Shown here piece by piece: positions 10,712 to 61,552 of a stretch of 64,000 bases of DNA (positions are counted from its first letter, which is position 1; the number at the start of each line of letters is the position of its first letter). The position numbers and the translations under genes are program-made. The notes under the pieces are model-generated. The model was given only the letters and a program-made list of their open reading frames with translations. It ran no database searches and was not told the origin of the DNA. The DNA lies in assembly GCA_001776935.1 (NCBI GenBank), contig MFDN01000014.1, positions 1,464 through 65,463 of the forward strand. Direction: 5' to 3'. The stretch comes from Candidatus Daviesbacteria bacterium RIFCSPLOWO2_01_FULL_39_23. Its GTDB lineage: Bacteria > Patescibacteriota > Microgenomatia > Daviesbacterales > UBA10151.

Positions 10712-10754
10712 TTCTGTTAAGGTTACACCTTGGTCAAGGTGTAACCTTGGTAAA

Positions 10755-11875: not shown

Positions 11876-13378
11876 ATGATTGAGATTCTGCCCCTTAGGG
11901 TTTTAACAGATGAAGATACGCCAATTTTTGGCGCGTTAAATGTGGCGCTTGGCAAAATAAAAAGATCGGATTTTCCGGTTTGCGACGGAATAGTAATCAA
12001 CGCTCCCTGTTTTAAGCTGAAAGCAGTTTTGGAGCATTTTGATTTTGGTTCAAGAGAAGTTTTCGAGCAGTCGTTAACTTTGGTAAAAAAGGAAATCAGC
12101 TCTATTGCAGTGCCTGCAGTATTAGAAAAAGAAACAAAAGGAAAAAAGGGTTATTTCCTTAAAGGAAAGACATATAAATCCGTAAACTCGCTTTGGTCGG
12201 CGCTTCTTTCGATATGGATAGACCAAATAAAGCAAAGGCTTTGGAATAAAGGATTTTATGAAGGAATCACCGAAAACCTAGAACCGCTTTTTACGGCTTT
12301 TGTTAAGAAAGTTCAGGGGTTTGGTTCGGCCTCTTTTGATCAGTTTGAGGATGATACAGTTGTTTTGGTAAAATCCGGCAAACTGCACCCTTCTGATTAT
12401 AAAAAAATTTCAGACCTTGTGACTTTGGCAAATAAGAAATTATTTATTCCGCATGAATATGAGTGGGTTATAGACGCGGGAGTAAAGTTTGTTGGCGTGA
12501 AGCCGCATACTCCAAACCAGGATACTTTAACGACCCAGGCTGTAAAGATAAATCTGAATAGCGTGTCTTCAGTTGTCCCTGTAAGAGAAACAAAAAGCAC
12601 AGTTAAGGTATTTTTTGATCTATCCTCCGGTTTTGCTATAGAAAAAAACATTGACGGCGTTTATATTGCATCTGAAAAGATATTTGATTTAAATTTACCC
12701 AGCAAGTCTTTTGATAACTTGGTATTTAAAATTGTGGAAGCGGCTGTTACTTTTCCCTCCTCACCTGTTTTTTTAAAGCTTGCAGATAAATCAGAAGGGA
12801 TGGGAAAAATCCGGGGGGCTTTGCGGCTTTTGCACCAAAAAAACCTTTTTGAACCTTTGGCAGAAGCTGTTTCTTTTGCCCGTCATAAAAAGGGACTCGT
12901 TAATGTACACATTGTTATTCCTTTTGTCCGGGGGGTTAATGAACTTTTGCAGATTAAAAGAGATTTGGCTGTCAAAAAACTTTCAAGAAAAAATTCTCTG
13001 CAGCTTTGGATGGAGGTTTGTGTGCCGGAAAACATTATTAATATGGAAGAATATTTGCTGGCAGGGATTGACGGGGTGGTTTTAAATTTGAATGAACAGA
13101 TTGCCCATCTTAACGGTTTTGATCCCAAAGAGGAGGAGTTGTCTTTTTATAAAAATGAGGTGGAAGGGCTGATTAAATTTTTGGAGGATCCGATCAGGCT
13201 TTTACATAAATCCAAAATTCCTTTTATAGTTTGCGGAAGCATGGCCCTTTATCCCAAAGTTTTGGAGTTTTTAGTGGAAAAGGGTGTATGGGGAATAGTG
13301 GTGGAACGTTTTGAGGCTCACTCAATCAGGGATTTGCTTCACCAAACAGAAAAAAGAATGATTTTGAGAAGAATGTAA
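11876..13378 (+). CDS. Hypothetical protein; weak resemblance to the nucleotide-binding and TIM-barrel domains of PEP-utilising enzymes
   Basis: 500 aa. N-terminal G.K...L......PVCDGIVI resembles the PPDK/PEPS ATP-grasp entry. No phospho-His (GGxxSH) motif is present. The call is speculative. Confidence 0.4.
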   Translation: MIEILPLRVLTDEDTPIFGALNVALGKIKRSDFPVCDGIVINAPCFKLKAVLEHFDFGSREVFEQSLTLVKKEISSIAVPAVLEKETKGKKGYFLKGKTYKSVNSLWSALLSIWIDQIKQRLWNKGFYEGITENLEPLFTAFVKKVQGFGSASFDQFEDDTVVLVKSGKLHPSDYKKISDLVTLANKKLFIPHEYEWVIDAGVKFVGVKPHTPNQDTLTTQAVKINLNSVSSVVPVRETKSTVKVFFDLSSGFAIEKNIDGVYIASEKIFDLNLPSKSFDNLVFKIVEAAVTFPSSPVFLKLADKSEGMGKIRGALRLLHQKNLFEPLAEAVSFARHKKGLVNVHIVIPFVRGVNELLQIKRDLAVKKLSRKNSLQLWMEVCVPENIINMEEYLLAGIDGVVLNLNEQIAHLNGFDPKEEELSFYKNEVEGLIKFLEDPIRLLHKSKIPFIVCGSMALYPKVLEFLVEKGVWGIVVERFEAHSIRDLLHQTEKRMILRRM

Positions 13379-13498: not shown

Positions 13499-14185
13499 TT
13501 ATTGAAGGTGAAATAATAAAATATATTCCCCTTTGGGTCCACCGGCTGGCGTATTTAAATCCTCAAGCCACTTGCTGATAGCTTGTTTCTTAACAGACTG
13601 ATGGATTTTAGTTAGTTCCTTGGCTAAAATAACCTCAATATCCCCAAAAATTTCCTTCATGTCAGATAAATCAGTACGGAGTTTATAAGGAGAAACAAAA
13701 AAAATAACAGTAGCATTTAGCTTCCCACATTCGATGTGGGAACGCAGATTTTTCAGTAAGTTTAGTCTTTGGCCGCTTTTTTCAGGCGGGTAGCCTAAAA
13801 ACATAAATTTATCAGGAGGAAGTCCGGATAAAGTTAATGAGGTGATTACAGAAGATGGGCCCGGGAGGGAGTCAACTTCCAGTCCCAAATTAATGCATTC
13901 CCTTACTAATTTATACCCGGGATCAGATATTAATGGGGTGCCGGCATCAGACACCAAAGCTAAGTTTTGACTGCATTTTAGTCGATCGACAATTATGCGT
14001 ATACTTTGAGCTTCGTTGTAGTCATTTAAAACAAGCAAAGGTTTTTGAATTTGGTAATGATTTAAAAGTTGAGCAGTCCTGCGGGTATCTTCACAAATTA
14101 TTGCGTCAACTTCTTTTAAAGTCTCAAGTGCCCTTAAAGTGATATCTTTTAAATTACCGATAGGTGTTGGAACAATATATAGCAT
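13499..14185 (-). CDS. rsmI: 16S rRNA (cytidine1402-2'-O)-methyltransferase RsmI
   Basis: MLYIVPTPIGNLKDITLRALETLKEVDAIICEDTRRT...LVSDAGTPLISDPG is the tetrapyrrole-methylase / RsmI signature. Confidence 0.85.
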   Translation of the reverse strand: MLYIVPTPIGNLKDITLRALETLKEVDAIICEDTRRTAQLLNHYQIQKPLLVLNDYNEAQSIRIIVDRLKCSQNLALVSDAGTPLISDPGYKLVRECINLGLEVDSLPGPSSVITSLTLSGLPPDKFMFLGYPPEKSGQRLNLLKNLRSHIECGKLNATVIFFVSPYKLRTDLSDMKEIFGDIEVILAKELTKIHQSVKKQAISKWLEDLNTPAGGPKGEYILLFHLQ

Positions 14186-15902: not shown

Positions 15903-18900
15903 ATGGCGGATTTTTTAAACGGCAATAAAATTTTTAATACTTTCAAAGAGCAGGTTTCAATATACCTAAATTCTTACAGTAAGCTTACGTCTCTGTGGTT
16001 GTTACCTTACAAACTTAAAGTAATCTACACACTATTGGAAAAAAATATGTTTAAGTTTTTTGCAAAGAAATCTATTACCCTAATTTCAATATTTTCATTA
16101 TTTATAAATATAATTTCACCTTTGGCTTTAGCCGGTCAAATTTATGCACAGGAAGCTTCCCCTGCTCCGGTTGTGGAAGAAGCCCCGGCTCCCTCTGCTA
16201 ATCCAGGCGAATCGCCAGTCCCAACTACTAATGAAAACACCCCGGCAGAAGCTTCTCCAGCTCCGGAGGTATCACCAACTCCTGAGCCTTCTCCGGTTGT
16301 AAGCCCTGAACCATCCCCTTCGCAGGTTTCAGAACCGGTATTGGAAGAAACTGCTAATGAATCTTCACCGGCAGCTGTTGTAGACCCGACTCCACAGGAG
16401 CAAACTTCTGCCACACCTGTTTGGCAAAATATTGCAGATAAAGAATTTACTACTTCTGAAAATGTAACTTTGGGTAATGAATATACTGCTCCCCAAAACG
16501 ATAAAGTAAAAGTCCAGTTTACAAAATTACCTGACCCTTCGGGAAAACTTACTATTAAAGAAGTAAAACTTACTCCTGAAGAAATGACATCTTTGGGAGC
16601 ATTTTCAGATACAGCCTACGACATCACCTCCACTATGTCTGATAGTACTTTTGAATATGACCTGACCCTGCCTTTACCGCAGGAGGCTCAAAACAAGGAA
16701 GTTGAAGTTAAAGCAGCAGAGACAGAAGAACAAATCTCACAGGCAACAGAAGTAACCGAGCAAAAGGAAAAGAAAACCCAGGATACTATTACTATAAAAG
16801 GCTTAAACCACTTTACAGTCTTTGTTATCACCACCCCAAGCCCTGATACTACTCAGAGAGTACTTATTAATGAAATACTGCCAAACCCGACTGCGGGTGC
16901 TGAATGGGTAGAATTTTTCAACAATGGCACTACCTCCGTAAACTTGGGGGCAGGTACAGGTTGGACAATTACAAACTCAGTAGGCAGTATACAGTCTCTT
17001 AGTGCACTGGGTACTATTCCTGCAGCAGGACGAGTAGTATTTGATGCTCCAGCAGGCTGGCTTTCCAATACTGCTCCGGAAACAATTACCATATCCAATG
17101 AGCTGGGCACAGTAGTTGATACTGTTACCGTATCTTTGATTGCTCCGGGTTTTGCAATTGACCACTATCCTTTAGCCGGAGAATCTGTTGGCAGAAGAAC
17201 AGACGGAGTTAACGAATGGTTGATTTTCACTACCCCGTCCAAAGGAACTGCCAATGTAGTACCGGTAGTTGGTGGGGCCGGACGGTTAGCTGAAGTTGGG
17301 CCTGTTGCCCCTGCAGGAGGACTTAGGGCAGGTTCCCCTAACTGGTACAGGGATAACAATAATTTAACACTTGAGCTGATGGAAGCAGCTGATGCAAACG
17401 GAATCTCCGCTCCTGTTGAGGCTGGCAATCCGTTTTCAGCCCAGATTGGTTTTGGAGCTGAAGGCTTCTGGTGGTCAGCTGAAGCTGATTTAACAACTTC
17501 TGCAGGCAGCGCGCTTTTAGTACAGGCAATTGAAGCAGCTTTTGCCGGTGAGTCAGCAGTTGACGGTGAACAGTCTTCTTTTGCCAGGATTAGGATTAGA
17601 GTTGATGTTGGCGAGCCGGGTACCTATATTGTTACTTATCCTTATGGTCAAAAGACCTATACTGTTACAACCCCTGGAGTTAGAGCTATTAATGATACTG
17701 TAGATATTGGCTGTTTTGCCCAGCCAGGCGTGAGCTGTGACCAGGTCGGTCAGCCTAACTTCTCCACACTGCTAAATGGCGGAATTGGGCCATTTTTAAC
17801 CTGGGATACTTTTAATTCGACCGGACCTTCTGACCCTGCTTTAAATATTGGCGGCAGAAGGTATGTGGGAACTGTTGCTACTCCGCATACAGTTAAAGGT
17901 TCCCCGACCGGTAATAATTTCTTCAGGATTCAGGGTCCGAATATCGGAGGCCCGGGGATCAATGTCATACAAACAAACCTTTTTACAGTCACCGGAAGAT
18001 TGGCAGGAGCAGGAGCTCCCGTTATAACCCTGCACGGTGCTAACCCTGTTAATGTATTGCAGAATGCGCCTTATACTGCAACAGAAGATGCCGGAGCCAC
18101 AGCTTTGGATGATGTGGATGGTAATTTGACAGCGAATATTCAAATAACCGGATTGCCGGTTAATACCGCCACAATAGGCGCTAAAACAGTAACTTATACA
18201 GTTACAGACAGTGCGGGCAATACTGCCACAGCCACAAGGACAGTAAATGTTGTAGAAACATCGGCAGTTGATGGAGTTGCCCCTGTAATAACCATTGCCG
18301 GTAATAACCCTGCCACGGTAGTAGCAGGAACTGCCTATATTGATGCAGGAGCTACAGCTTTGGATAATGTTGACGGCGCAGTGGCTGTATCTACAACAGG
18401 TTTGCCGGTTAATACATCAGTAGTTGGTTCTGCTACGGTTACATATACTGCAACTGATGCGGCCGGCAATACTGCAAGCCTTGACAGAATCGTCAATATA
18501 GTGGCAGATAATGTTGCCCCGACTATTACCATTACAGGTTCAAACCCGGTGTTTGTCTTCATCGGTGGAACCTATACGGATGCCGGTGCTACTTGCACAG
18601 ACAATGTAGACGGAGATTGTACTGCCTTAATAATCACTTCCGGTGCTGTGATTGATACTTCTGCTGCAGGTTCTCATACAGTTAATTATGCTTATACAGA
18701 CGCTGCCGGCAATAACACCAGCGTTAACAGGACTGTCAACGTAGCTGCTACCCTGCCCGCCGGATTGGTTGAAGTCGGACCTGTTGCTCCTGCAGGAGGG
18801 TTGGGGGCAGGTTTCCCGGAGTGGTACAAAGATTCAAACGCTTTAATCTTAGATTTAATGGAAGCGGCTGATCCTCACAGCATTTCCGCTCCTGTTGAAG

Positions 18901-21803
18901 CAGGTAATGCTTTCTCTGAAACTCTTGGCTTTGGAGCTGAAGGCTTTTGGTGGGCGACTGATGCTGATATGGCTACCTCAGGCCCTAATGGCGCAATTTT
19001 AGTCCAGGCAGTTGAAGCAGCTTTTGCAGGCGAATCAGCAGTTGACGGCGAACAGTCTGCCTTTGCCCGGGTCAGGATCAGAATAGATGTCGGAGAGCCG
19101 GGCACATACACTGTCACCTATCCGTTTGGAACAAAAACATATGATGTATTAACTGTAGGGCCAGGGTTTGAAATTAATGATACTTCTGATATCGGCTGCT
19201 TTGCCCAACCAGGTATAAGCTGTGACCAGGCAGGCCAGCCAAACTTCTCGACCGTATTAAGCGGTGAAATAGGACCATTCCTGACCTGGGACACCTTTGA
19301 CCCAAACCCGGTTCTTTCTGATCCTTTGCTGACACATTCTGTTACTAACAGGAGATATGTAGGCGACGGTATAACACCGCACATTGTTAAAGGCAGCCCG
19401 ACCGGCAACAACTTCTTCAGGATTGAAGGACCAAATATCGGAGGGGCTGGAGTTAACTCAGTCCAGACAAATTTGTTTACAGTAGTCGGCAGACTGGATA
19501 ATGCTGTTAATCCTAATGCGCCTGTTATCACCGTAGTCGGCGCAAACCCTGTCACTGTTTTGCTGAATGATCCTTACACTGCAGTACAAGATGCCGGCGC
19601 CACAGCCACAGATGTGCCTGATGGTGATTTGACTGCTTCTATTATAGAAAGCGGACTTCCGGTTGACACTTCCACTGTTGGAGCTAAAACTGTCACATAT
19701 ACAGTCACAGATGCTAACGGCAATACTGTAAGCGCCACAAGAACAATTAATGTGGTGGCTGCTCTTCCTGCTGATGTGACGCCTCCGGTTATTACTGTGC
19801 TGGGTGCAAATCCGATCACAGTTACAGTCGGATCAACCTATGCTGCGGCAGAAGATGCCGGTGCCACAGCTTTTGATGCTGTAGATGGTGTGGTAGTTGT
19901 AGCAGAATCGGGGTTGCCTGTTGATACCTCAACAGAAGGCGCCAAAACAGTCACATACACTTCCACAGACGCTGCCGGCAATACGGCTACTATCACAAGG
20001 ACTGTTAATGTGACATCTGCGCCTGTTACCACCGGTTCCATAAGGATCATAAAAGATACCGTATTAAATAACGCCCAGGATTTTGAATTCAGGTTAAGGC
20101 TTGGTGCGTTTGACCAAACTTTTTTCCTTGATGATGATTCTGATAATACGCTTCCTAATGTGCGCGAATTTGAAGGCCTGGCTACAGGAGCCTACAACCT
20201 TCAGGAGATCGTAAACAGTAATTGGAACCTAATTTCCATAAGCTGCAATGATCCTGATTCCGGTACAACCTTTGACTTAGGTGCATCCACCGCCACAATT
20301 GACCTTGATGCCGGTGAAAGAGTCACCTGTGAATTTACCAATGCCCCGCGCCAGTCAATTGCCGGTGAAAAGTTTTCTGACCAGAATAATAACGGGGTTA
20401 AAGAGGCAGGAGAACCTGGACTTTCCGGCTGGACAATTTATCTTGATACTAATGATAACGGTGTATTGGACGGCGGAGAGACTTCCGTAGTCACTGATTC
20501 AGAAGGAGATTACCAGTTCCTGAGTGTTAGCAATGGGGTGGTAAATGTGCGTGAGGTTACTCAAAGCAACTGGCAGCCAAAAACTCCATCCGGCGGGAAA
20601 TATGTCTTAACAATGACTTCAAACTCCAGTTTCATCAGTAAGGACTTTGGTAATGCCCAAATACTCACAATACCGGGTGCAAGCGGCAGATTTTTCTCAA
20701 CCGGCGGCCCTGTAAACTCCACCACCTCAGTTGTAGCTGATGATGATAATACAATTTCTGTGGCAGGCAATGGTGGCACTACTACTATTCTTATTCCTGA
20801 AGGTACTGTTATCACCAAATCAGACGGCGGCACTATTGATTTCAGCCAGCTCACATCTGCAGTATTAGCTGCTTCAGCTGTCTCAGGCTTGGGTAGCGGA
20901 GTGGTAGTTGATGGAGTCCTGCAATGGGGTATTCCAAACTTAGGTTTATTATTCAGCCAGCCAATTACCATTAATTTCTTTATCGGCACAGCTTTCAACG
21001 GCCAAACCTTAAATATTCAAAGGTCAATCTCAGGCAGCGGAGGCTGGACTACTGACGGCATTGTTGCTCCTGCTACCTGTACAGTATCAGCCGGAGTCTG
21101 CAGCTTCCAAACCACTAAAGCATCGTTCTTTGCATCTACACATAATGTTCCTGCTGACAATAATACAGGCAGCGGAACTTCTGGCAACAATAACAGCACT
21201 ACCTCAGCCCCTACCTGTAATGATGTCAAACCAGGTTCTGCACCAACTCTTTTGTCAGCTGTTGCAACCGGAGCCAATGAAGTGACCTTAACATGGAGCA
21301 AAGCTGCTGACCCGGTCACCGGATACATGATAGCTTTTGGACTTACCTCAGGAGATCTAAGATTTGGCGATCCAAACCAGGGCAGCAAAAATGATACTCA
21401 AAGAGTTATCAAAAACCTGTCCGGAGGCACCACATACTTCTTCAGAGTCAAAGCTGCAAACGGCTGCAATGCAAGCGACTATTCAAACGAGATAGCTGTA
21501 AAAGCAACCGGGCAGGCATTATCCACTAATATTCCTGCAGGGTTTCAGGAAGGGGTCTTAGGAGCACAAACTGATCAGGGCAGCACCGGTACCGGAGGGG
21601 CAATTGATTATCCGTCTCCTACCCCAAGCGTGGATGATGTATTAGGTACAGATTCGCAGAATGTGGGAGTAGGACAAGATCAAGCTCAAGGTCAAACAGC
21701 CGGAGCAAGATCCAATACCCCCCTGGCTGTGGGAGTAGCCTTAGTTTTGCTCACAATTCTGGGTGTTGGATATACATTATACAGGCGCAATAAACTTCAA
21801 TAA
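15903..21803 (+). CDS. Giant cell-surface protein with signal peptide, Pro-rich linker, Lamin-tail domain, tandem Ig-like (DUF5011/HYR-type) repeats, SdrD-B/CnaB-like and FN3 domains, and a C-terminal TM anchor
   Basis: 1966 aa. The likely true start is the ATG at 16047 (MFKFFAKKSITLISIFSLFINIISPLALA signal peptide). An LTD motif (VLINEILPNPTAGAEWVEFFNNG) is present. There are at least 7 repeats of the type ANPVxVxxNAPYTAxEDAGATAxDxVDGxLTA...GAKTVTYTVTDxAGNTA. An internal duplication of about 470 aa (LAEVGPVAPAGGL...GTYxVTYP) is visible. The C-terminus is PLAVGVALVLLTILGVGYTLYRRNKLQ. Confidence 0.8.
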   Translation: MADFLNGNKIFNTFKEQVSIYLNSYSKLTSLWLLPYKLKVIYTLLEKNMFKFFAKKSITLISIFSLFINIISPLALAGQIYAQEASPAPVVEEAPAPSANPGESPVPTTNENTPAEASPAPEVSPTPEPSPVVSPEPSPSQVSEPVLEETANESSPAAVVDPTPQEQTSATPVWQNIADKEFTTSENVTLGNEYTAPQNDKVKVQFTKLPDPSGKLTIKEVKLTPEEMTSLGAFSDTAYDITSTMSDSTFEYDLTLPLPQEAQNKEVEVKAAETEEQISQATEVTEQKEKKTQDTITIKGLNHFTVFVITTPSPDTTQRVLINEILPNPTAGAEWVEFFNNGTTSVNLGAGTGWTITNSVGSIQSLSALGTIPAAGRVVFDAPAGWLSNTAPETITISNELGTVVDTVTVSLIAPGFAIDHYPLAGESVGRRTDGVNEWLIFTTPSKGTANVVPVVGGAGRLAEVGPVAPAGGLRAGSPNWYRDNNNLTLELMEAADANGISAPVEAGNPFSAQIGFGAEGFWWSAEADLTTSAGSALLVQAIEAAFAGESAVDGEQSSFARIRIRVDVGEPGTYIVTYPYGQKTYTVTTPGVRAINDTVDIGCFAQPGVSCDQVGQPNFSTLLNGGIGPFLTWDTFNSTGPSDPALNIGGRRYVGTVATPHTVKGSPTGNNFFRIQGPNIGGPGINVIQTNLFTVTGRLAGAGAPVITLHGANPVNVLQNAPYTATEDAGATALDDVDGNLTANIQITGLPVNTATIGAKTVTYTVTDSAGNTATATRTVNVVETSAVDGVAPVITIAGNNPATVVAGTAYIDAGATALDNVDGAVAVSTTGLPVNTSVVGSATVTYTATDAAGNTASLDRIVNIVADNVAPTITITGSNPVFVFIGGTYTDAGATCTDNVDGDCTALIITSGAVIDTSAAGSHTVNYAYTDAAGNNTSVNRTVNVAATLPAGLVEVGPVAPAGGLGAGFPEWYKDSNALILDLMEAADPHSISAPVEAGNAFSETLGFGAEGFWWATDADMATSGPNGAILVQAVEAAFAGESAVDGEQSAFARVRIRIDVGEPGTYTVTYPFGTKTYDVLTVGPGFEINDTSDIGCFAQPGISCDQAGQPNFSTVLSGEIGPFLTWDTFDPNPVLSDPLLTHSVTNRRYVGDGITPHIVKGSPTGNNFFRIEGPNIGGAGVNSVQTNLFTVVGRLDNAVNPNAPVITVVGANPVTVLLNDPYTAVQDAGATATDVPDGDLTASIIESGLPVDTSTVGAKTVTYTVTDANGNTVSATRTINVVAALPADVTPPVITVLGANPITVTVGSTYAAAEDAGATAFDAVDGVVVVAESGLPVDTSTEGAKTVTYTSTDAAGNTATITRTVNVTSAPVTTGSIRIIKDTVLNNAQDFEFRLRLGAFDQTFFLDDDSDNTLPNVREFEGLATGAYNLQEIVNSNWNLISISCNDPDSGTTFDLGASTATIDLDAGERVTCEFTNAPRQSIAGEKFSDQNNNGVKEAGEPGLSGWTIYLDTNDNGVLDGGETSVVTDSEGDYQFLSVSNGVVNVREVTQSNWQPKTPSGGKYVLTMTSNSSFISKDFGNAQILTIPGASGRFFSTGGPVNSTTSVVADDDNTISVAGNGGTTTILIPEGTVITKSDGGTIDFSQLTSAVLAASAVSGLGSGVVVDGVLQWGIPNLGLLFSQPITINFFIGTAFNGQTLNIQRSISGSGGWTTDGIVAPATCTVSAGVCSFQTTKASFFASTHNVPADNNTGSGTSGNNNSTTSAPTCNDVKPGSAPTLLSAVATGANEVTLTWSKAADPVTGYMIAFGLTSGDLRFGDPNQGSKNDTQRVIKNLSGGTTYFFRVKAANGCNASDYSNEIAVKATGQALSTNIPAGFQEGVLGAQTDQGSTGTGGAIDYPSPTPSVDDVLGTDSQNVGVGQDQAQGQTAGARSNTPLAVGVALVLLTILGVGYTLYRRNKLQ

Positions 21804-24064: not shown

Positions 24065-24130
24065 TTAATGCAAGTATACCTCTTTAAAAAGATTGCAAAA
24101 TAGGTTAAAATGGAACCTCATTTTTCGGGA
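24065..24130 (+). repeat. About 65-bp conserved promoter-like element, copy 1 (AGTATAyCCyCTTTAAAAG-TTGCAAAATAGGkTAAAATGGAACCTCATTTTTCGGGA)
   Basis: Near-identical to 29208..29270 (about 55/62 identities). It contains TTTAAA-17-TAAAAT and the palindrome AAAATG-N6-CATTTT. Confidence 0.6.
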
Positions 24131-29207: not shown

Positions 29208-29270
29208 TCAGTATATACCCCTTTAAAAGTTTTGCAAAATAGGGTAAAATGGAACCTCATTTTTCGGGAA
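29208..29270 (+). repeat. About 65-bp conserved promoter-like element, copy 2, upstream of uvrA
   Basis: See copy 1. The uvrA ATG lies about 50 nt downstream. Confidence 0.6.
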
Positions 29271-51066: not shown

Positions 51067-51684
51067 GTGAAAAAGAAGTTATCAATTGTTTGGATTGTTA
51101 TTATTTTTGCTGTATTAGGAATGGTTGGAGGTACAGTTTTTGTAAACCGGAATCTTCAGGTATTACAGCAAACTGTGCCTCAAGCCGTACAAAAAGAGGC
51201 TGTAACGCCCATACTTGCTCAAAGTAAGGAAAGCGTGCAGGCGGCTGAGCCGCGGCTTATCAGTATTCCTAAAATTAATATCACTGCAGATGTGGAATCT
51301 GTTGGCGAGGATGAAAAAGGCAGGATGGCAGTTCCCGGGGAAGTAATGAATGTGGGATGGTATAAACTTGGCTATAAGCCCGGAGAAAAAGGCAGTGCGG
51401 TATTTGCAGGACATTTGGATAAAGTTACCGGTGAACCGGCAGTTTTTTATGATATCAGTAAATTATCAGCAGGTGATGAAATTATTGTAACGGACAAAAA
51501 CGGCAAAAAATTAACTTTTGAAGTTATTAAATCCCAAGTTTATCCCTTTGATGAAGTCCCACTTAAGGAGGTATTTCTTAGTACTGATAAAATCCGGTTG
51601 AATTTGATCACCTGTACAGGATCATGGAATAAAGATGATAAAAACTACTCCAACAGACTGGTTGTTTATTCTCAGCTGAAGTAA
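51067..51684 (+). CDS. Sortase (class E/F-like transpeptidase)
   Basis: An N-terminal TM helix is followed by the catalytic His region (AVFAGHLD), Cys (LNLITCTGSW) and Arg (NRLVVYSQ). Confidence 0.75.
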   Translation: MKKKLSIVWIVIIFAVLGMVGGTVFVNRNLQVLQQTVPQAVQKEAVTPILAQSKESVQAAEPRLISIPKINITADVESVGEDEKGRMAVPGEVMNVGWYKLGYKPGEKGSAVFAGHLDKVTGEPAVFYDISKLSAGDEIIVTDKNGKKLTFEVIKSQVYPFDEVPLKEVFLSTDKIRLNLITCTGSWNKDDKNYSNRLVVYSQLK

Positions 51685-51685
51685 T

Positions 51686-51724
51686 CCCACCTCGGAGGTA
51701 GGAGTACAATGACACGTAGGGTTT
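51686..51724. repeat. REP-like palindromic element, copy 1 (CCCACCTCGGAGGTAGGAGTAC...ACGTAGGGTTT)
   Basis: It is 20/21 identical over its core to the copy at 56839. It lies between the convergent sortase and rpe genes. Confidence 0.65.
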
Positions 51725-52424
51725 AGAAGGCTTCCAAGACTTTCAAAAGTTGCGCAAGATTTTCATCAGGATCACCTTTCATTAAAAAAGAGCCCAAAAT
51801 AAGCGAATCTGCTCCTGCTTCCAAAATTTCTCCGGCATTAGTATCTTTAACAGCTCCGTCAACAGAAATTTTTACCGGCCATCCTTTTGATTTTATTTCC
51901 CTGATTTTATGTATGGTTTCCGGTACAAAAGGCTGGCCCTGAAAGCCTGGGGTGACTCCCATAACCAAAACTCTATCCACAATTTGAGAATACGGCTCTA
52001 GAGCTTTAATGTCAGTATCAGGATTAATTGCCAACACGCTTTCTGCAACCCCTCTTTTTATCAGCTCAATATATCCGGCAATATCTTCATCTGCTTCAAT
52101 ATGAATAATTATCCGGGCAAATCCCAGTTCCAAACATCTTTTAATCCAGCTTTTTGGCTGTTTGACCATAAGATGTGCCTCTTTTTTTAAAGCCCCAAAA
52201 TCCATATTTGCTAAATCATCCGGATTAATGCTTTTGTTGGGTACTAAGATATTGTCCATAAAATCCACATGAACCCAGCCGGAGTTTAAAGTCTTAGAGC
52301 TTAATAATTTATTTAGATCAACTTTAAAGTCCTCAATATTTTTGCTTAAAATCGCAGGAATAATTTCTTCGGGGATTTTAACCATTTGAAACATTTTAAC
52401 ATAAGTCTTTTTGCTTGCTTCCAA
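51723..52424 (-). CDS. rpe: Ribulose-phosphate 3-epimerase
   Basis: WVHVDFMDNILVPN...HLMV...DGAV shows the RPE TIM-barrel motifs. Confidence 0.9.
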   Translation of the reverse strand: MEASKKTYVKMFQMVKIPEEIIPAILSKNIEDFKVDLNKLLSSKTLNSGWVHVDFMDNILVPNKSINPDDLANMDFGALKKEAHLMVKQPKSWIKRCLELGFARIIIHIEADEDIAGYIELIKRGVAESVLAINPDTDIKALEPYSQIVDRVLVMGVTPGFQGQPFVPETIHKIREIKSKGWPVKISVDGAVKDTNAGEILEAGADSLILGSFLMKGDPDENLAQLLKVLEAF

Positions 52425-55330: not shown

Positions 55331-56173
55331 ATGAAACCTAATAACCTTAAAACCAAAATCTTTTTAGACAGCGGTGATCCCAAGGAAACTGAAGAAATCA
55401 AAAACCTGCTGGGTTTTTTGGACGGCCAAACCACCAATCCTTCTTTAATTGCCAAAAACCCTGATGCCTTGGGCAAAAAATTCTCCAAAGAAGAAATCGC
55501 CTCATTTTATAAAGATGTAGTTGAAAAAGTTAATTCAATTATTCCGGAAGGCTCAATTTCCATAGAAGTTTATGCGGATAAAGATTCTACCTCTGATGTT
55601 CTTTTGGAAGAAGGCCGCAAAATGTTTTCCTGGATCCCAAATGCCCATATTAAATATCCAATCACAAAAGCAGGCCTGGAAGCAGCAGAAAAATCCGTGA
55701 AAGAGGGGATCAGGTTGAATATGACTCTCTGCTTTTCACAGGAACAGGCAGCTGCTGTTTATTCTGCAACAAGTGGGGGGGGAAATACCTATGTTTCCCC
55801 TTTTGCCGGCAGGTGGGATGATAAAGGCTTTAACGGTATGGATTTAATAAAAAACATTTTAAAAATGTATGAAAACGGTGACGGACACGTAAAAGTTTTG
55901 GCAGCCTCTATCAGAAATATGGATCATTTTTTGTGTTCGCTTGCTATGGGAGCAGATATTATTACAGCTCCTTTTAAAATCCTGAAAGAATGGGCAGATA
56001 ATGGAATGCAAATCCCCGGGCCTGATTATGTTTATCCCAAAGGGGAGTTAAAAGAAATTCCTTATCAGGAAATTAGTTTGGATAAGCCATGGCAGGAATA
56101 TGAAATCTTACACGAAATGACAGACGCAGGCCTGGAAAAATTCTCCACAGACTGGAACAACCTTATTGCCTAA
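55331..56173 (+). CDS. Transaldolase / fructose-6-phosphate aldolase family protein
   Basis: FLDSGDPKETEE (the FLDTA-type start), the Schiff-base Lys region IKYPITKAGLEA, and VSPFAGR are present. Confidence 0.8.
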   Translation: MKPNNLKTKIFLDSGDPKETEEIKNLLGFLDGQTTNPSLIAKNPDALGKKFSKEEIASFYKDVVEKVNSIIPEGSISIEVYADKDSTSDVLLEEGRKMFSWIPNAHIKYPITKAGLEAAEKSVKEGIRLNMTLCFSQEQAAAVYSATSGGGNTYVSPFAGRWDDKGFNGMDLIKNILKMYENGDGHVKVLAASIRNMDHFLCSLAMGADIITAPFKILKEWADNGMQIPGPDYVYPKGELKEIPYQEISLDKPWQEYEILHEMTDAGLEKFSTDWNNLIA

Positions 56174-56175
56174 AA

Positions 56176-56214
56176 TCCTACCTCCGAGGTAGAAATGAGG
56201 CTATACCTAGGGTT
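56176..56214. repeat. REP-like palindromic element, copy 2 (CCTACCTCCGAGGTAG...ATACCTAGGGTTT)
   Basis: It lies immediately downstream of the stop of the RAYT-like gene. Its core is the inverted version of the copy-1 core. Confidence 0.6.
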
Positions 56215-56217
56215 TAT

Positions 56218-56631
56218 CTATTCCTCCAAAGCTAAGTGTTTTATTAATTCTAATTTTTGAGCATAGTCAACTTGGTCTAAAACAAACTCTTCATACGTAT
56301 GTTCGCTTTTGAACATAGAAAGAACAAAATCTTTGGAACAGGCTTTATCAAACTGCGAACTAATATAATTCTGATAAGAGGACCAGGGATACTCTTTCAA
56401 ATCCTTTACAAGGAAGGAGGCGATGGGATTTAGGTGAATATATCGTGAGACATGAATTAATTGTTCATCAGATTCAATCCTCAGAGCCTTAAATTGACCT
56501 TGTAGCAGAGGCCCTACCCGACTATATCTGGTATTAAAATATTTTGTATAACTGTTAGATATCTTGCTGATAAATTCAGAAATACCATTATCCTGAATCT
56601 GCCGAATTAAAAAATGATAGTGGTTGGGCAT
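56218..56631 (-). mobile_element. Truncated IS200/RAYT-like HUH (Y1) transposase gene
   Basis: MPNHYHFLI (HuH motif) ... RVGPLLQGQFKALRIESDEQLIHVSRYIHLNPI (the conserved RYIxxNP end of Y1 transposases). The upstream in-frame sequence stays open for about 45 codons (…KKIIEILCYCL-MPNHYHF) with no ATG, GTG or TTG, so the N-terminus looks lost or degenerate. Confidence 0.6.
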
Positions 56632-56815
56632 TAGGCAGTAACAAAGTATTTCTATAATTTTTTTATTTTTCTCAAACTTAAAATCCTTAAATCTATTAAG
56701 CTGAGAAAATTGAGGTTTAGGACCTTGATACTGATAATAGTAATAAATACATGATAAATCTGATCGTTTACTAGGGGAGTTTTACGATAGGGCATTAATA
56801 AGACTAAATCACATA

Positions 56816-56876
56816 AAACCCTACGTGTCAATATGTTTTCACCTCGGAGGTAGGAGTGCGTTGATACCTAGGGTTT
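56816..56876. repeat. REP-like palindromic element, copy 3 with extended stem (AAAACCCTACG...CACCTCGGAGGTAGGAGTGC...ATACCTAGGGTTTT)
   Basis: It lies upstream of the RAYT-like ORF and at the 3' end of the HAD gene. The outer arms AAAACCCTA / TAGGGTTTT are complementary. Confidence 0.6.
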
Positions 56877-56882
56877 TAGTAT

Positions 56883-57584
56883 TTAAGCATTTAGAAACTT
56901 GAGGATTTTGTCTTTTTCTTCCAAAGATTCAACTGCTAAATCAGCATGCATAAGCTCGTGAATTTTATGATGTCCTGCTCCTACTGCTATTACCGGTATG
57001 CCGCCGGCTCTGGCGCAGGCAATATCCAAGGGAGCGTCTCCAATAATGACCAGCCTTTCCAAGGGTACATCTTCTTTTAATATTTTACTCACCTGTTGGC
57101 GGGCGATTTCAATTAAATCTACCCTTTTAAACGCCATTGAACCAAAAGCCCCGAATGAAAAAAAATCTTTAATTCCGGCCCTTGCGAGCTTATTCCACGA
57201 TATCTCAGCAACATTGCCGGTTAAAAGCCCAAGGGTATCTCCGTGTGCTTTCAGCGCTGATAACAGAGCAACAACTCCCGGCATCGGTGTATAGGTTCCT
57301 TCATTTGCATGTTCATTAAAATACTTAATCATTGCTTCAATCGCCTGAGGCATTTTAATTTTTGCTTCTTCTTCTGAAACTCCATGTAATGCCAAGGTTT
57401 CGATTAAAATCTGAGTATCTATTTTTCCCTGTCCCATTACTTCTTTTTGCGAAGCAGTTGGCTGGTTATAAACAGTATGCAAAGCATAATCAAAAGCCTC
57501 GTGGTGAACTTTGTTTCCGATATCCCCGCCTTTAAGCAATGTCCAATCTACATCAAAAAGAGGGATTTTAAATTTATCCTGCAT
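56883..57584 (-). CDS. HAD-superfamily hydrolase (phosphatase)
   Basis: Motif I FDVDWTL and motif IV IIGDAPLDIACARAGG are present. The start is set at the ATG at 57584 (MQDKFKIPLFDVD) to avoid overlap with the HD gene; the ORF track extends to 57665. Confidence 0.8.
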   Translation of the reverse strand: MQDKFKIPLFDVDWTLLKGGDIGNKVHHEAFDYALHTVYNQPTASQKEVMGQGKIDTQILIETLALHGVSEEEAKIKMPQAIEAMIKYFNEHANEGTYTPMPGVVALLSALKAHGDTLGLLTGNVAEISWNKLARAGIKDFFSFGAFGSMAFKRVDLIEIARQQVSKILKEDVPLERLVIIGDAPLDIACARAGGIPVIAVGAGHHKIHELMHADLAVESLEEKDKILKFLNA

Positions 57585-59264: not shown

Positions 59265-59565
59265 TTTTATGGAAATACCTGAAAAAGGATCCGATATAAG
59301 ATTTACCAAAACTGCAGGTAATGTTAAAAAGGTTAATATCCCTGCCTATGGTGATGTATATGTTTGTCCATATCCTCCATCTGACTTTCCAGATACGCAA
59401 AAAGCAGCCAAGGCAATAATATACGCTAAAAAGGGAATAAAACGAAAGTAACAACCTTACGAACATTACTACTACGACCGTATGTTTAATGTGAACAGTA
59501 AGATAGTTTCGTATATCTATCCTTGGGGTGGCAAGCTAAACCTTCACTGAGTCCTCACATCTGAG

Positions 59566-59586
59566 TTCCCACATCGGATGTGGGAA
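59566..59586. repeat. Palindrome TTCCCACAT-CGG-ATGTGGGAA flanked by AAGCTAAAC direct repeats
   Basis: A perfect 9-bp-arm hairpin lies 8 nt downstream of the permease gene stop. A related copy sits inside rsmI at 13722..13742. Confidence 0.55.
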
Positions 59587-59593
59587 GCTAAAC

Positions 59594-61510: not shown

Positions 61511-61552
61511 TTGTGTTAAGGTCGCACCTTGACAAAGGTGCGACCTTGGTAA

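Follow-up and report, generated by a model that had tools for sequence, protein, structure and literature searches.

The 64,000-nucleotide (nt) stretch analysed here, referred to as the window (Candidatus Daviesbacteria bacterium RIFCSPLOWO2_01_FULL_39_23, contig MFDN01000014.1, positions 1,464 to 65,463 of the forward strand), holds near its far end the remains of a gene for an HUH/Y1 protein, lying between copies of a short palindromic repeat. A sequence-only reading had described the locus as REPtron-like, that is, as a truncated REP-associated tyrosine transposase (RAYT) gene flanked by repetitive extragenic palindromic (REP)-like elements. The features concerned, with repeat scores from the covariance model described below, are:

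51683-51726, plus strand: solo unit A of the repeat (63.2 bits, E 1e-21)
56174-56217, plus strand: unit B (61.9 bits, E 4e-21)
56218..56795, minus strand: RAYT-like HUH/Y1 pseudogene, with ATG at 56795 and stop codon at 56218-56220
56218..56631, minus strand: the open reading frame (ORF) singled out by the sequence-only reading, which begins at an internal methionine, residue 78 of the intact protein
56741..56747, minus strand: junction of a 67-nt deletion, GTATTTA/TTACTATT (slash at the junction; placement ambiguous within the TTTA microhomology)
56803..56831, minus strand: candidate promoter in the gene-proximal unit (TTGACA at 56831-56826, 17 nt, TTTAGT at 56808-56803, then 8 nt to the ATG)
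56814-56878, both strands: doublet C, composed of units 56814-56857 (minus) and 56835-56878 (plus), 57.5 and 55.5 bits, respectively

The Y1 pseudogene and its flanking repeats

The minus-strand ORF 56218..56631 encodes 137 residues, in which both MPNHYHFLI and SRYIHLNPI are present. It keeps NHYH (the HUH motif), RYIHLNP (the Y motif), WSSY and the C-terminal helices and, compared with a model of the orthologous protein P0005, has no strand beta1, helix alphaA or strand ahead of the HUH motif (here and below, L and P numbers are our handles for loci and proteins). Measured against its orthologues, the ORF corresponds to the C-terminal two thirds of an HUH/Y1 protein. Codons 1-17 (MPYRKTPLVNDQIYHVF, from the ATG at 56795) are kept in one frame and the remainder of the gene, to the stop codon, in another. 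In the DNA alignment, 67 nt bounded by TTTA microhomologies are lost from inside the gene, and the junction falls at about 56744/56743; columns 159-225 of this alignment of orthologues are a gap in the window sequence only. In the protein alignment, 23 residues (NRGVAKLPIFTDKRDYNRFLETI) are gone from the window protein, and its downstream part is collinear with the orthologues. The deletion shifts the frame, and the gene is therefore a pseudogene rather than an N-terminal truncation, as which the sequence-only reading had also described it. According to the alignment and the model, the deleted segment codes for the invariant NRG motif and helix alphaA. Programmed frameshifting was ruled out, because the missing 67 nt encode invariant residues. 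In annotation, the 137-residue ORF should carry a pseudogene label.

The match of the window ORF to Pfam Y1_Tnp scores 24.7 bits, above the cut-off of 23, and spans positions 49-119 of the 121 in the profile; the sole NCBIfam match was REP_Tyr_transpos (NF047646) at 47.5 bits, E 1.6e-12, below the curated cut-off of 80 bits. The HUH motif and Y1-type RYIHLNP first seen by eye are thus confirmed by motif and by profile, and similarity to the RAYT model is significant, albeit under that model's threshold. Intact orthologues likewise matched REP_Tyr_transpos alone within NCBIfam, and no IS200 NCBIfam model was matched by either the window ORF or these orthologues. With the conceptually repaired protein as query, 3433 homologues were returned at E <= 1e-5; the nearest intact ones are 213-216 residues long, at most 72% identical and, where named, from Daviesbacteria or Microgenomates. 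NHYH, YIHLNP and WSSY are invariant across an alignment of 20 orthologues. In the published classification, Y-x-x-x-N-P is the signature of class 2 (TnpA-REP) and Y---Q that of IS200 (PMC6006769, Table 1); the window ORF and all 20 orthologues have the class 2 signature of Y-x-x-x-N-P plus HUH. The row for subclass 2.1, or Bertels Group 1 (NH[YF]H, Y[IV]HLNP, SS in the tail, ~238 residues; PMC6006769, Table 1), fits in a comparison of motifs only, with NHYH, YIHLNP, WSSY and 213-216 residues. Subclass 2.1 is equated with the TIRYT proteins, associated with terminal inverted repeats (TIRs), of Di Nocera et al. 2013 (PMC6006769).

The best PDB match of the profile of 20 orthologues was E. coli TnpA-REP (4ER8, E 0.019), with ISDra2 TnpA at E 0.5. 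An AlphaFold model of P0005, of moderate quality (pLDDT 69, pTM 0.71), gave 4ER8 as Foldseek rank 1 (E 1.6e-4, TM 0.64 on target) and as the sole match at E<1e-3; IS608 and ISDra2 TnpA came after it, at E 1.3e-3 or weaker. By profile and predicted fold, the Y1 protein resembles E. coli TnpA-REP more than the IS200 transposases, and the suspicion that the ORF might have no similarity to HUH proteins can be set aside. In the modelled 216-residue orthologue, helices at 163-212 extend beyond the core. A C-terminal helix-turn-helix (HTH) domain (Bac_DnaA_C, HTH_23 or HTH_28) was not found there, Pfam at E <= 0.01 giving Y1_Tnp only.

The repeat unit consists of a hairpin, (A)TCCyACCTCsGAGGTrGGA, a 12-nt spacer and the tail ACsTAGGGTTT(T), 42-44 nt in all with sharp ends. 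The 12-mer core of the repeat has 5 matches in the window, against 0.21 expected. A covariance model built from 58 distinct copies found exactly four full units, at three sites and with 55-63 bits; its remaining matches, at 24 bits or less, are the palindromic core on the opposite strand only. The three copies of the sequence-only reading (3' of the gene, 5' of it, and between sortase and rpe) are indeed real and related, and align as direct repeats on the plus strand, but the 5' copy is not a single unit: doublet C is made of two inverted units with one common central hairpin. Given this overlapping inverted partner, 56816-56876 is a 61-nt palindrome (65 nt with the model flanks). It lies between the end of a HAD-hydrolase gene (56883) and the start of the pseudogene, its minus-strand unit has the TATTGACAC spacer class, and L001 and L045 have such a doublet upstream of their intact genes as well. 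Unit B is an exact fill of the gap between the stop codons of a transaldolase gene (56171-56173) and of the pseudogene (56218-56220), runs opposite to the gene-proximal upstream unit of the Y1 gene, and occupies an orthologous position in L001, L008 and L009. Unit A sits between the convergent sortase-like (plus) and rpe (minus) genes, overlapping both stop codons by 2-4 nt.

Doublet C folds at -10.7/-11.7 kcal/mol (z -2.6/-3.7); the unit itself is defined by conserved sequence rather than by hairpin stability. In a consensus scan of 55900-57100 no terminator-like site was called, and an Rfam scan of the whole window returned three tRNAs only, with no family at the repeats; the palindromes form one family and are not Rho-independent terminators. 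GTAG/GTGG occurs only inside the 3' arm (GAGGTrGGA) of the aligned copies, from which the TIR motif GGGGWSAS is absent. The 12-nt spacers fall into four discrete classes (GTGAAGCTAC, GTACGATGAG, AyrTATTGAC and GTGATCGGAC), of which at least the TATTGAC and AGCTAC classes recur across species and in the second hairpin variant described below. Beside the Y1 start codon the class is TATTGAC.

The gene-proximal upstream unit is always of the ...TATTGACAC... spacer class, which sets TTGACA 16-17 nt ahead of a T-rich hexamer, with ~8 nt more to the ATG, and the spacing of TTGACA to the hexamer is kept in L001, L005, L008 and L009. A promoter embedded in the repeat unit is plausible, and the spacer would then probably supply the -35 box. 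The consensus scan of 55900-57100 did not call TTGACA-17-TTTAGT, because the second hexamer has no A at position 2, and the promoter is therefore put forward as a candidate.

Intact orthologues, dispersal and a second hairpin

In L001, which encodes P0005 (69-77% identical by two alignments), the ATG follows the end of the doublet by ~20 nt, and 9 nt past the Y1 stop codon an inverted unit begins. L008 and L009 have one upstream unit in the orientation of the gene and an inverted downstream unit. These three loci, bracketed by window-type units, were retrieved by protein (66-77% identical); L028, L039, L040 and L045 are also flanked by window-type units, so that in all eight loci (the window and seven with intact genes) units stand on both sides of the Y1 gene. 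Inverted gene-proximal units are found in the window, L001, L008, L009 and L120. The window, L001 and partly L009 also have a common neighbourhood, with a HAD hydrolase upstream, pentose-phosphate genes downstream, and PGI and sortase nearby. For P0105, among the 24 contigs read, L005-L007 (the three places shown) hardly differ in their neighbours, and nine more places were grouped with them as similar. Each sampled genome set has a single Y1 locus, and no second copy was seen in the sampled loci. In these loci the gene appears to be single-copy and vertically inherited, unlike an insertion sequence (IS).

To follow the unit elsewhere, one genome per GTDB species was scanned with an exact pattern of 20 specified bases plus one two-fold degenerate position. 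This gave ~50 matches in 47 loci of 19 assemblies, all of Daviesbacteria/Microgenomates type. Strict copies reach 10 per assembly, and the covariance model adds some degenerate copies. Once doublets and duplicates were merged, 63 distinct sites remained. Of these, 16 belong to the flanks of eight Y1 genes, 32 fall between genes or at their ends, and 15 are in frame well inside long ORFs. About a third of the 47 non-flanking sites (15) are therefore intragenic, in either orientation. The intergenic copies mostly abut a stop codon, often within 0-25 nt, and a single genome can have near-identical units at unrelated loci (L033, L040, L051 and L054 are examples).

The lineage of P0105 (~59-60% identical) is flanked by another hairpin of like architecture, GTCCACCCTTGGGGTGGA-N11-ACCTGCGGA, its unit being GTCCACCCTTGGGGTGGA, 11 nt and ACCT(G/C)(C/T)GGA. 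A metagenome scan, with counts read directly from a match listing in which more than half of the matches are chance ones on high-GC contigs, found the GTCCACCCTTGGGGTGGA hairpin with the same tail and spacer classes on at least ~35 low-GC contigs; at least ~30 low-GC contigs with this variant have no Y1 gene on the contig. P0105-like genes adjoin the hairpin on four contigs (L072/L130, L120, L166), and in L097 such a gene lies ~1 kb from a unit. Proteins beside this type are 86-100% (L005, L130, L166) or 61% (L120) identical to P0105. The CCTACCTCsGAGGT type goes with orthologues near P0005 and the GTCCACCCTTGGGGTGGA type with P0105-like proteins, and both types are dispersed; across the loci compared, hairpin type and protein lineage vary together.

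More distant Y1 paralogues (34-38% identical) also adjoin the GTCCACCCTTGGGGTGGA hairpin, in L066 (~379-747), L108 (~18-485) and L150 (~220-873), where it has another tail (catggggg...). A further distant paralogue, at L041 499-1140, is in a genome also holding a window-type doublet. More lineage/repeat pairs probably exist. Assemblies titled 'uncultured Gammaproteobacteria bacterium (binchicken)' carry the unit as well (CAYQAW01, CAZYPW01, CAZFZP01, CAZGFG01 and CAZJNI01; loci L010, L017, L020, L021, L024, L026, L033, L035-L041, L051 and L054) and encode Y1 proteins 82% identical to P0005. Because unit and proteins are of the Daviesbacteria type, these titles are probably wrong.

In-frame copies and other repeat families

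The insertions into long ORFs are either a 42-nt unit or a 63-nt doublet, and in related assemblies the in-frame unit amounts to 14-15 residues and the in-frame doublet to 21-22. Read antisense, the unit gives (L/Q/K)NP(T/R)SHRTPTSEVG(Y/F); read sense, it gives S(H/Y)L(R/G)G.N.MTPRV(F/L). The sites are:

L015 1499-1542: in-frame unit in a long ORF
L017 1019-1062: in-frame unit
L021 7605-7648: in-frame unit
L022 1858-1901: in-frame unit
L026 5526-5569: in-frame unit
L029 4032-4075: in-frame unit
L031 3492-3535: in-frame unit
L035 4875-4918: in-frame unit
L037 5860-5903: in-frame unit
L042 6920-6963: in-frame unit
L046 167-210: in-frame unit
L047 4586-4629: in-frame unit
L048 6184-6227: in-frame unit
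L034 4180-4244: in-frame insertion in a long ORF
L038 2243-2307: in-frame insertion

The host genes include those for a Y-family polymerase (DinB; one site, four genomes), MurT (one site, five genomes), RluA-type pseudouridine synthase (two) and an O-antigen-ligase-like protein (two), as well as a holB-like gene, among others. When aligned with solved homologues, the inserts of MurT and DinB coincide with short gapped loops; the aligned parts of the RluA-type synthase end just before the insert, which is itself uncovered. Among the 120 best MurT orthologues (P0121-P0240), the loop FGRVEK-[..]-GYIFLIKNP is empty (KLPFGY) in 91 and has inserts in 29. These inserts come from at least four palindromic families (LNPTSHRTPTSEVGY, LQPSRLHRK.., FPHSKW(G/E)A and LPRLETGKAG), and the loop either attracts insertions as a hot spot or is the one site where they are tolerated. 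The MurT copies show 95% nucleotide conservation and their flanks 65-81%, a difference that we do not use as evidence of selection because the search pattern fixes 20 of 36 positions. Empty (L177, L178) and occupied (L022, L029, L031) MurT DNA have diverged flanks, in which no target duplication or exact boundary could be read. The window orthologue (11876-13378) of the unit-bearing gene in L042 has an unrelated linker of the same length and offers no clean empty site.

One of the families in the MurT loop, TTCCCACAT.CGATGTGGGAA, is also present in the window, at two places:

59559-59592: second palindrome family, intergenic
13716-13749: second palindrome family, in frame in the RsmI-like gene 13499..14185 (minus strand)

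Its consensus is TTCCCACAT(T/C)(C/G)GATGTGGGAA, with ~7-nt conserved flanks and 94% complementary copies, and a compensatory change from C-G to A-T sets its hairpin apart from the RAYT-associated one. Compared with E. coli RsmI (5HW4), the RsmI-like protein has 6 extra residues where the in-frame copy lies. The sequence-only reading was thus correct in pointing to in-frame palindromes elsewhere, except that in the window they concern this other family. In practical terms, oddities of 14-22 residues in MurT, DinB, RluA and RsmI proteins of Daviesbacteria are to be recognised as repeat-derived.

The in-frame colonisation of essential genes in relatives is what mainly raises the interest of the locus. 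As a tentative generalization, for which we see rather less than an even chance, Daviesbacteria might keep several palindromic families that colonise the same surface loops of essential proteins and are retained at orthologous sites across species. At least one of these families would be serviced by a domesticated single-copy Y1 nuclease with a promoter inside its own repeat. The whole would be a counterpart, in the Candidate Phyla Radiation (CPR), of the Rickettsia palindromic elements (RPEs), with the mobilising enzyme identified.

Other repeats in the window were noted in passing. A third palindrome family, TTnTGTTAAGGTyrCACCTTG...CAAGGTGyrACCTTGGTAA, has copies at 10712-10753 and 61511-61552; both are intergenic and exactly fill gene gaps, with compensatory changes between the copies. 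At 17286-19756, two adjacent ~1.5 kb segments, 72-79% identical and with internal 51-nt repeats, look like tandem paralogous genes. A 56-nt repeat (TATACCyCTTTAAAA...GGTAAAATGGAACCTCATTTTTCGGGA) occurs at 24075-24130 and, 5.1 kb apart and with 91% identity, at 29214-29269; it may be a shared promoter or leader.

Interpretation and comparison with known systems

Probably, though not with certainty, the locus is an inactivated one of REPtron/TIRtron type: a single-copy, vertically inherited RAYT-class HUH/Y1 gene bracketed by its cognate 42-44 nt unit. One unit stands just upstream, in the orientation of the gene, and one just downstream, inverted; in the window genome an extra inverted upstream unit makes the 65-nt doublet. 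If it works as its homologues E. coli TnpA-REP and IS608 TnpA do, the intact protein would bind the hairpin on single-stranded DNA, and its HUH metal site and catalytic tyrosine would cut and rejoin beside it. Over evolutionary time, units and doublets may have spread in this way to gene ends and, in frame, into protein surface loops. The 67-nt deletion has destroyed the enzyme gene in the window genome, so that the three repeat sites there would be immobile relics, perhaps still serving as transcript-end hairpins. The anatomy, the homology, the arrangement conserved across species, the dispersal of the unit and the co-variation of hairpin and protein are observations; we infer mobility from the last two, and DNA binding and cleavage by homology.

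The core of the sequence-only reading is thus strengthened by the flanked intact orthologues, the dispersal of the unit and the cognate hairpin of the second lineage. Two of its corollaries are not supported. An active or recently active system does not agree with an enzyme gene that is dead here and with one unit away from it in 64 kb, and strict RAYT/REP membership does not agree with scores below the NCBI cut-off, the missing GT[AG]G foot and ~10 copies per genome rather than hundreds. We therefore file the protein, in working, as REPtron/TIRtron-like, claiming strict membership of no curated subfamily, because the HTH domain, GGGGWSAS and the GT[AG]G foot are all absent.

Several observations weigh against a REPtron/TIRtron-type origin. 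The intact orthologues score 59.7, 53.2 and 42.6 bits with REP_Tyr_transpos, under the cut-off of 80, and sequence similarity of the Y1 protein to PDB entries is weak. Single units are no better folded than shuffles (z -0.7 to -1.5), and covariation in the hairpin is modest, with one pair found as UA 27, CG 13, UG 9 and other 9 and a score beaten by 20 of 500 shuffles. The canonical 5' GT[AG]G foot is replaced by (A/T)A at the bases 5' of the stem. Copy number is low, with no more than 10 strict copies in any assembly and a single non-flanking one in the 64-kb window; the single-copy status of the gene rests on sampled loci; and in L005, L130 and L166 the flanking units are direct, as at IS200/IS605 ends.

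Direct units would suit a decayed autonomous IS200/IS605-type IS of ~700 bp, with the flanking palindromes as subterminal hairpins and the third copy as a solo end or a miniature inverted-repeat transposable element. The 705 bp from 56174 to 56878 with their HUH/Y1 gene have the dimensions of IS200, units B and C (plus) are direct on one strand, both flanking units are direct in the P0105 lineage, and the best Pfam model is named 'Transposase IS200 like'. We nevertheless consider such an IS unlikely. The Y motif is YIHLNP, of class 2, and not Y---Q (PMC6006769), the IS200 NCBIfam models are unmatched, and the protein has 216 residues with a C-terminal helical extension instead of ~150. The gene stands in a like neighbourhood in species whose proteins are only 69-77% identical, and P0105 has essentially like neighbours at L005-L007 and similar ones at nine more places. 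The sampled locus sets contain neither a second copy nor the near-identical, non-syntenic copies expected of an IS, the gene-proximal upstream and downstream units are inverted in most loci, and units are far commoner without the gene than with it.

The palindromes could also serve the host in regulation or at transcript ends, as terminators, mRNA-stabilising hairpins or an operator, and the Y1 protein would then have had no part in their spread. Intergenic copies mostly abut stop codons, A and B separate convergent genes, the doublet forms a stable hairpin with TTTTA after it, the upstream unit places TTGACA at promoter distance from the ATG, and the unit is retained across species at orthologous sites such as MurT. 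This account, which we think has little chance of being the right one, fits poorly with the negative terminator scan and with a single-unit hairpin that is followed by a conserved 21-nt non-T tail. Nor does it account for the 15 of 47 non-flanking sites within coding sequence in either orientation, for Y1 loci flanked on both sides in 8 of 8 cases examined, for a hairpin sequence that shifts with protein lineage, or for near-identical units at unrelated loci in one genome (L033, L040, L051, L054). A secondary host role for the units is compatible with a REPtron/TIRtron-type origin. Finally, the frameshift might be an assembly or sequencing artefact, with the gene intact and active in the organism; no other lesion is present, and the 17 + 174 open codons match the best intact orthologue at 72% identity. 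This is very improbable: a clean 67-nt deletion between TTTA repeats is unlike a homopolymer slip, the deleted segment codes for the invariant NRG and helix alphaA, and the identical junction occurs in the separately recorded JGI contig L004 (99.95% identity to the window across 3895 nt), which may share sample or population.

REP/RAYT is the best-studied case of a host-retained transposase that services tiny repeats, and is known mainly from Proteobacteria, Cyanobacteria and Bacteroidetes. Our full-text searches turned up no description of a REP/RAYT or palindromic-repeat system in Patescibacteria/CPR, the only co-mention being an archaeal gene; such systems seem undescribed in this phylum. 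The Daviesbacteria case would mean that even strongly reduced genomes keep a REP/RAYT-like logic, and the well-bounded 42-nt substrate and the 216-residue enzyme form a compact pair for biochemistry.

With REPtrons (E. coli TnpA-REP 4ER8 and its REP/BIME repeats; class 2 of Quentin et al. 2018; the groups of Bertels et al. 2017) the system has in common an HUH/Y1 protein with Y-x-x-x-N-P, the best profile and fold match among solved structures, and a gene that is apparently single-copy and syntenic in the sampled loci. Cognate hairpin repeats flank the gene and also occur elsewhere, as single units or inverted doublets and mostly at the 3' ends of genes, and the repeat type co-varies with protein lineage. 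Unlike REPtrons, the Daviesbacteria protein, of 216 residues, is below the NCBIfam cut-off and has an extra C-terminal helical region. Its unit has a long conserved 3' tail, ACsTAGGGTTT, in place of the GT[AG]G foot, the doublets have one common hairpin rather than two, and there are ~10 copies per genome rather than hundreds, in a small-genome CPR bacterium.

TIRtrons (TIRYT; PMC3733652; subclass 2.1, Bertels Group 1, PMC6006769) are similar in NH[YF]H, Y[IV]HLNP, SS in the tail and a length above 200 residues, and in ~40-nt inverted repeats with a self-complementary tract that bracket the gene and belong to a moderately abundant dispersed family; flanking 16-mers of Bertels Group 1 average 12 occurrences. 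They differ in their HTH/DnaA_C-like C-terminal domain, undetected here by Pfam, and in GGGGWSAS, absent here. Moreover, subclass 2.1 genes had no REP-like sequences nearby in the study of Quentin et al. (PMC6006769), while the Y1 genes here always have a hairpin repeat; the placement in this subclass is by motifs only. IS200/IS605 TnpA (IS608, ISDra2) shares the HUH/Y1 fold, ~700 bp between the outer repeats and a hairpin-plus-linker at both ends, direct in some lineages. The Daviesbacteria protein, by contrast, is not of Y---Q type, is longer and is apparently single-copy and syntenic in the sampled loci, and its repeats are usually inverted and mostly without a gene.

The in-frame unit (14-15 residues) and doublet (21-22 residues), as well as the second palindrome family in the window RsmI gene, recall the Rickettsia RPE (Ogata et al., as cited in PMC3733652) and intragenic REPs, the latter being found in the same gene classes of Y-family polymerase and pseudouridine synthase (Di Nocera et al. 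2013, PMC3733652). The Daviesbacteria unit differs in being much shorter than RPE-1, in having an identifiable cognate Y1 gene, and in that one MurT loop is taken by several unrelated palindrome families.

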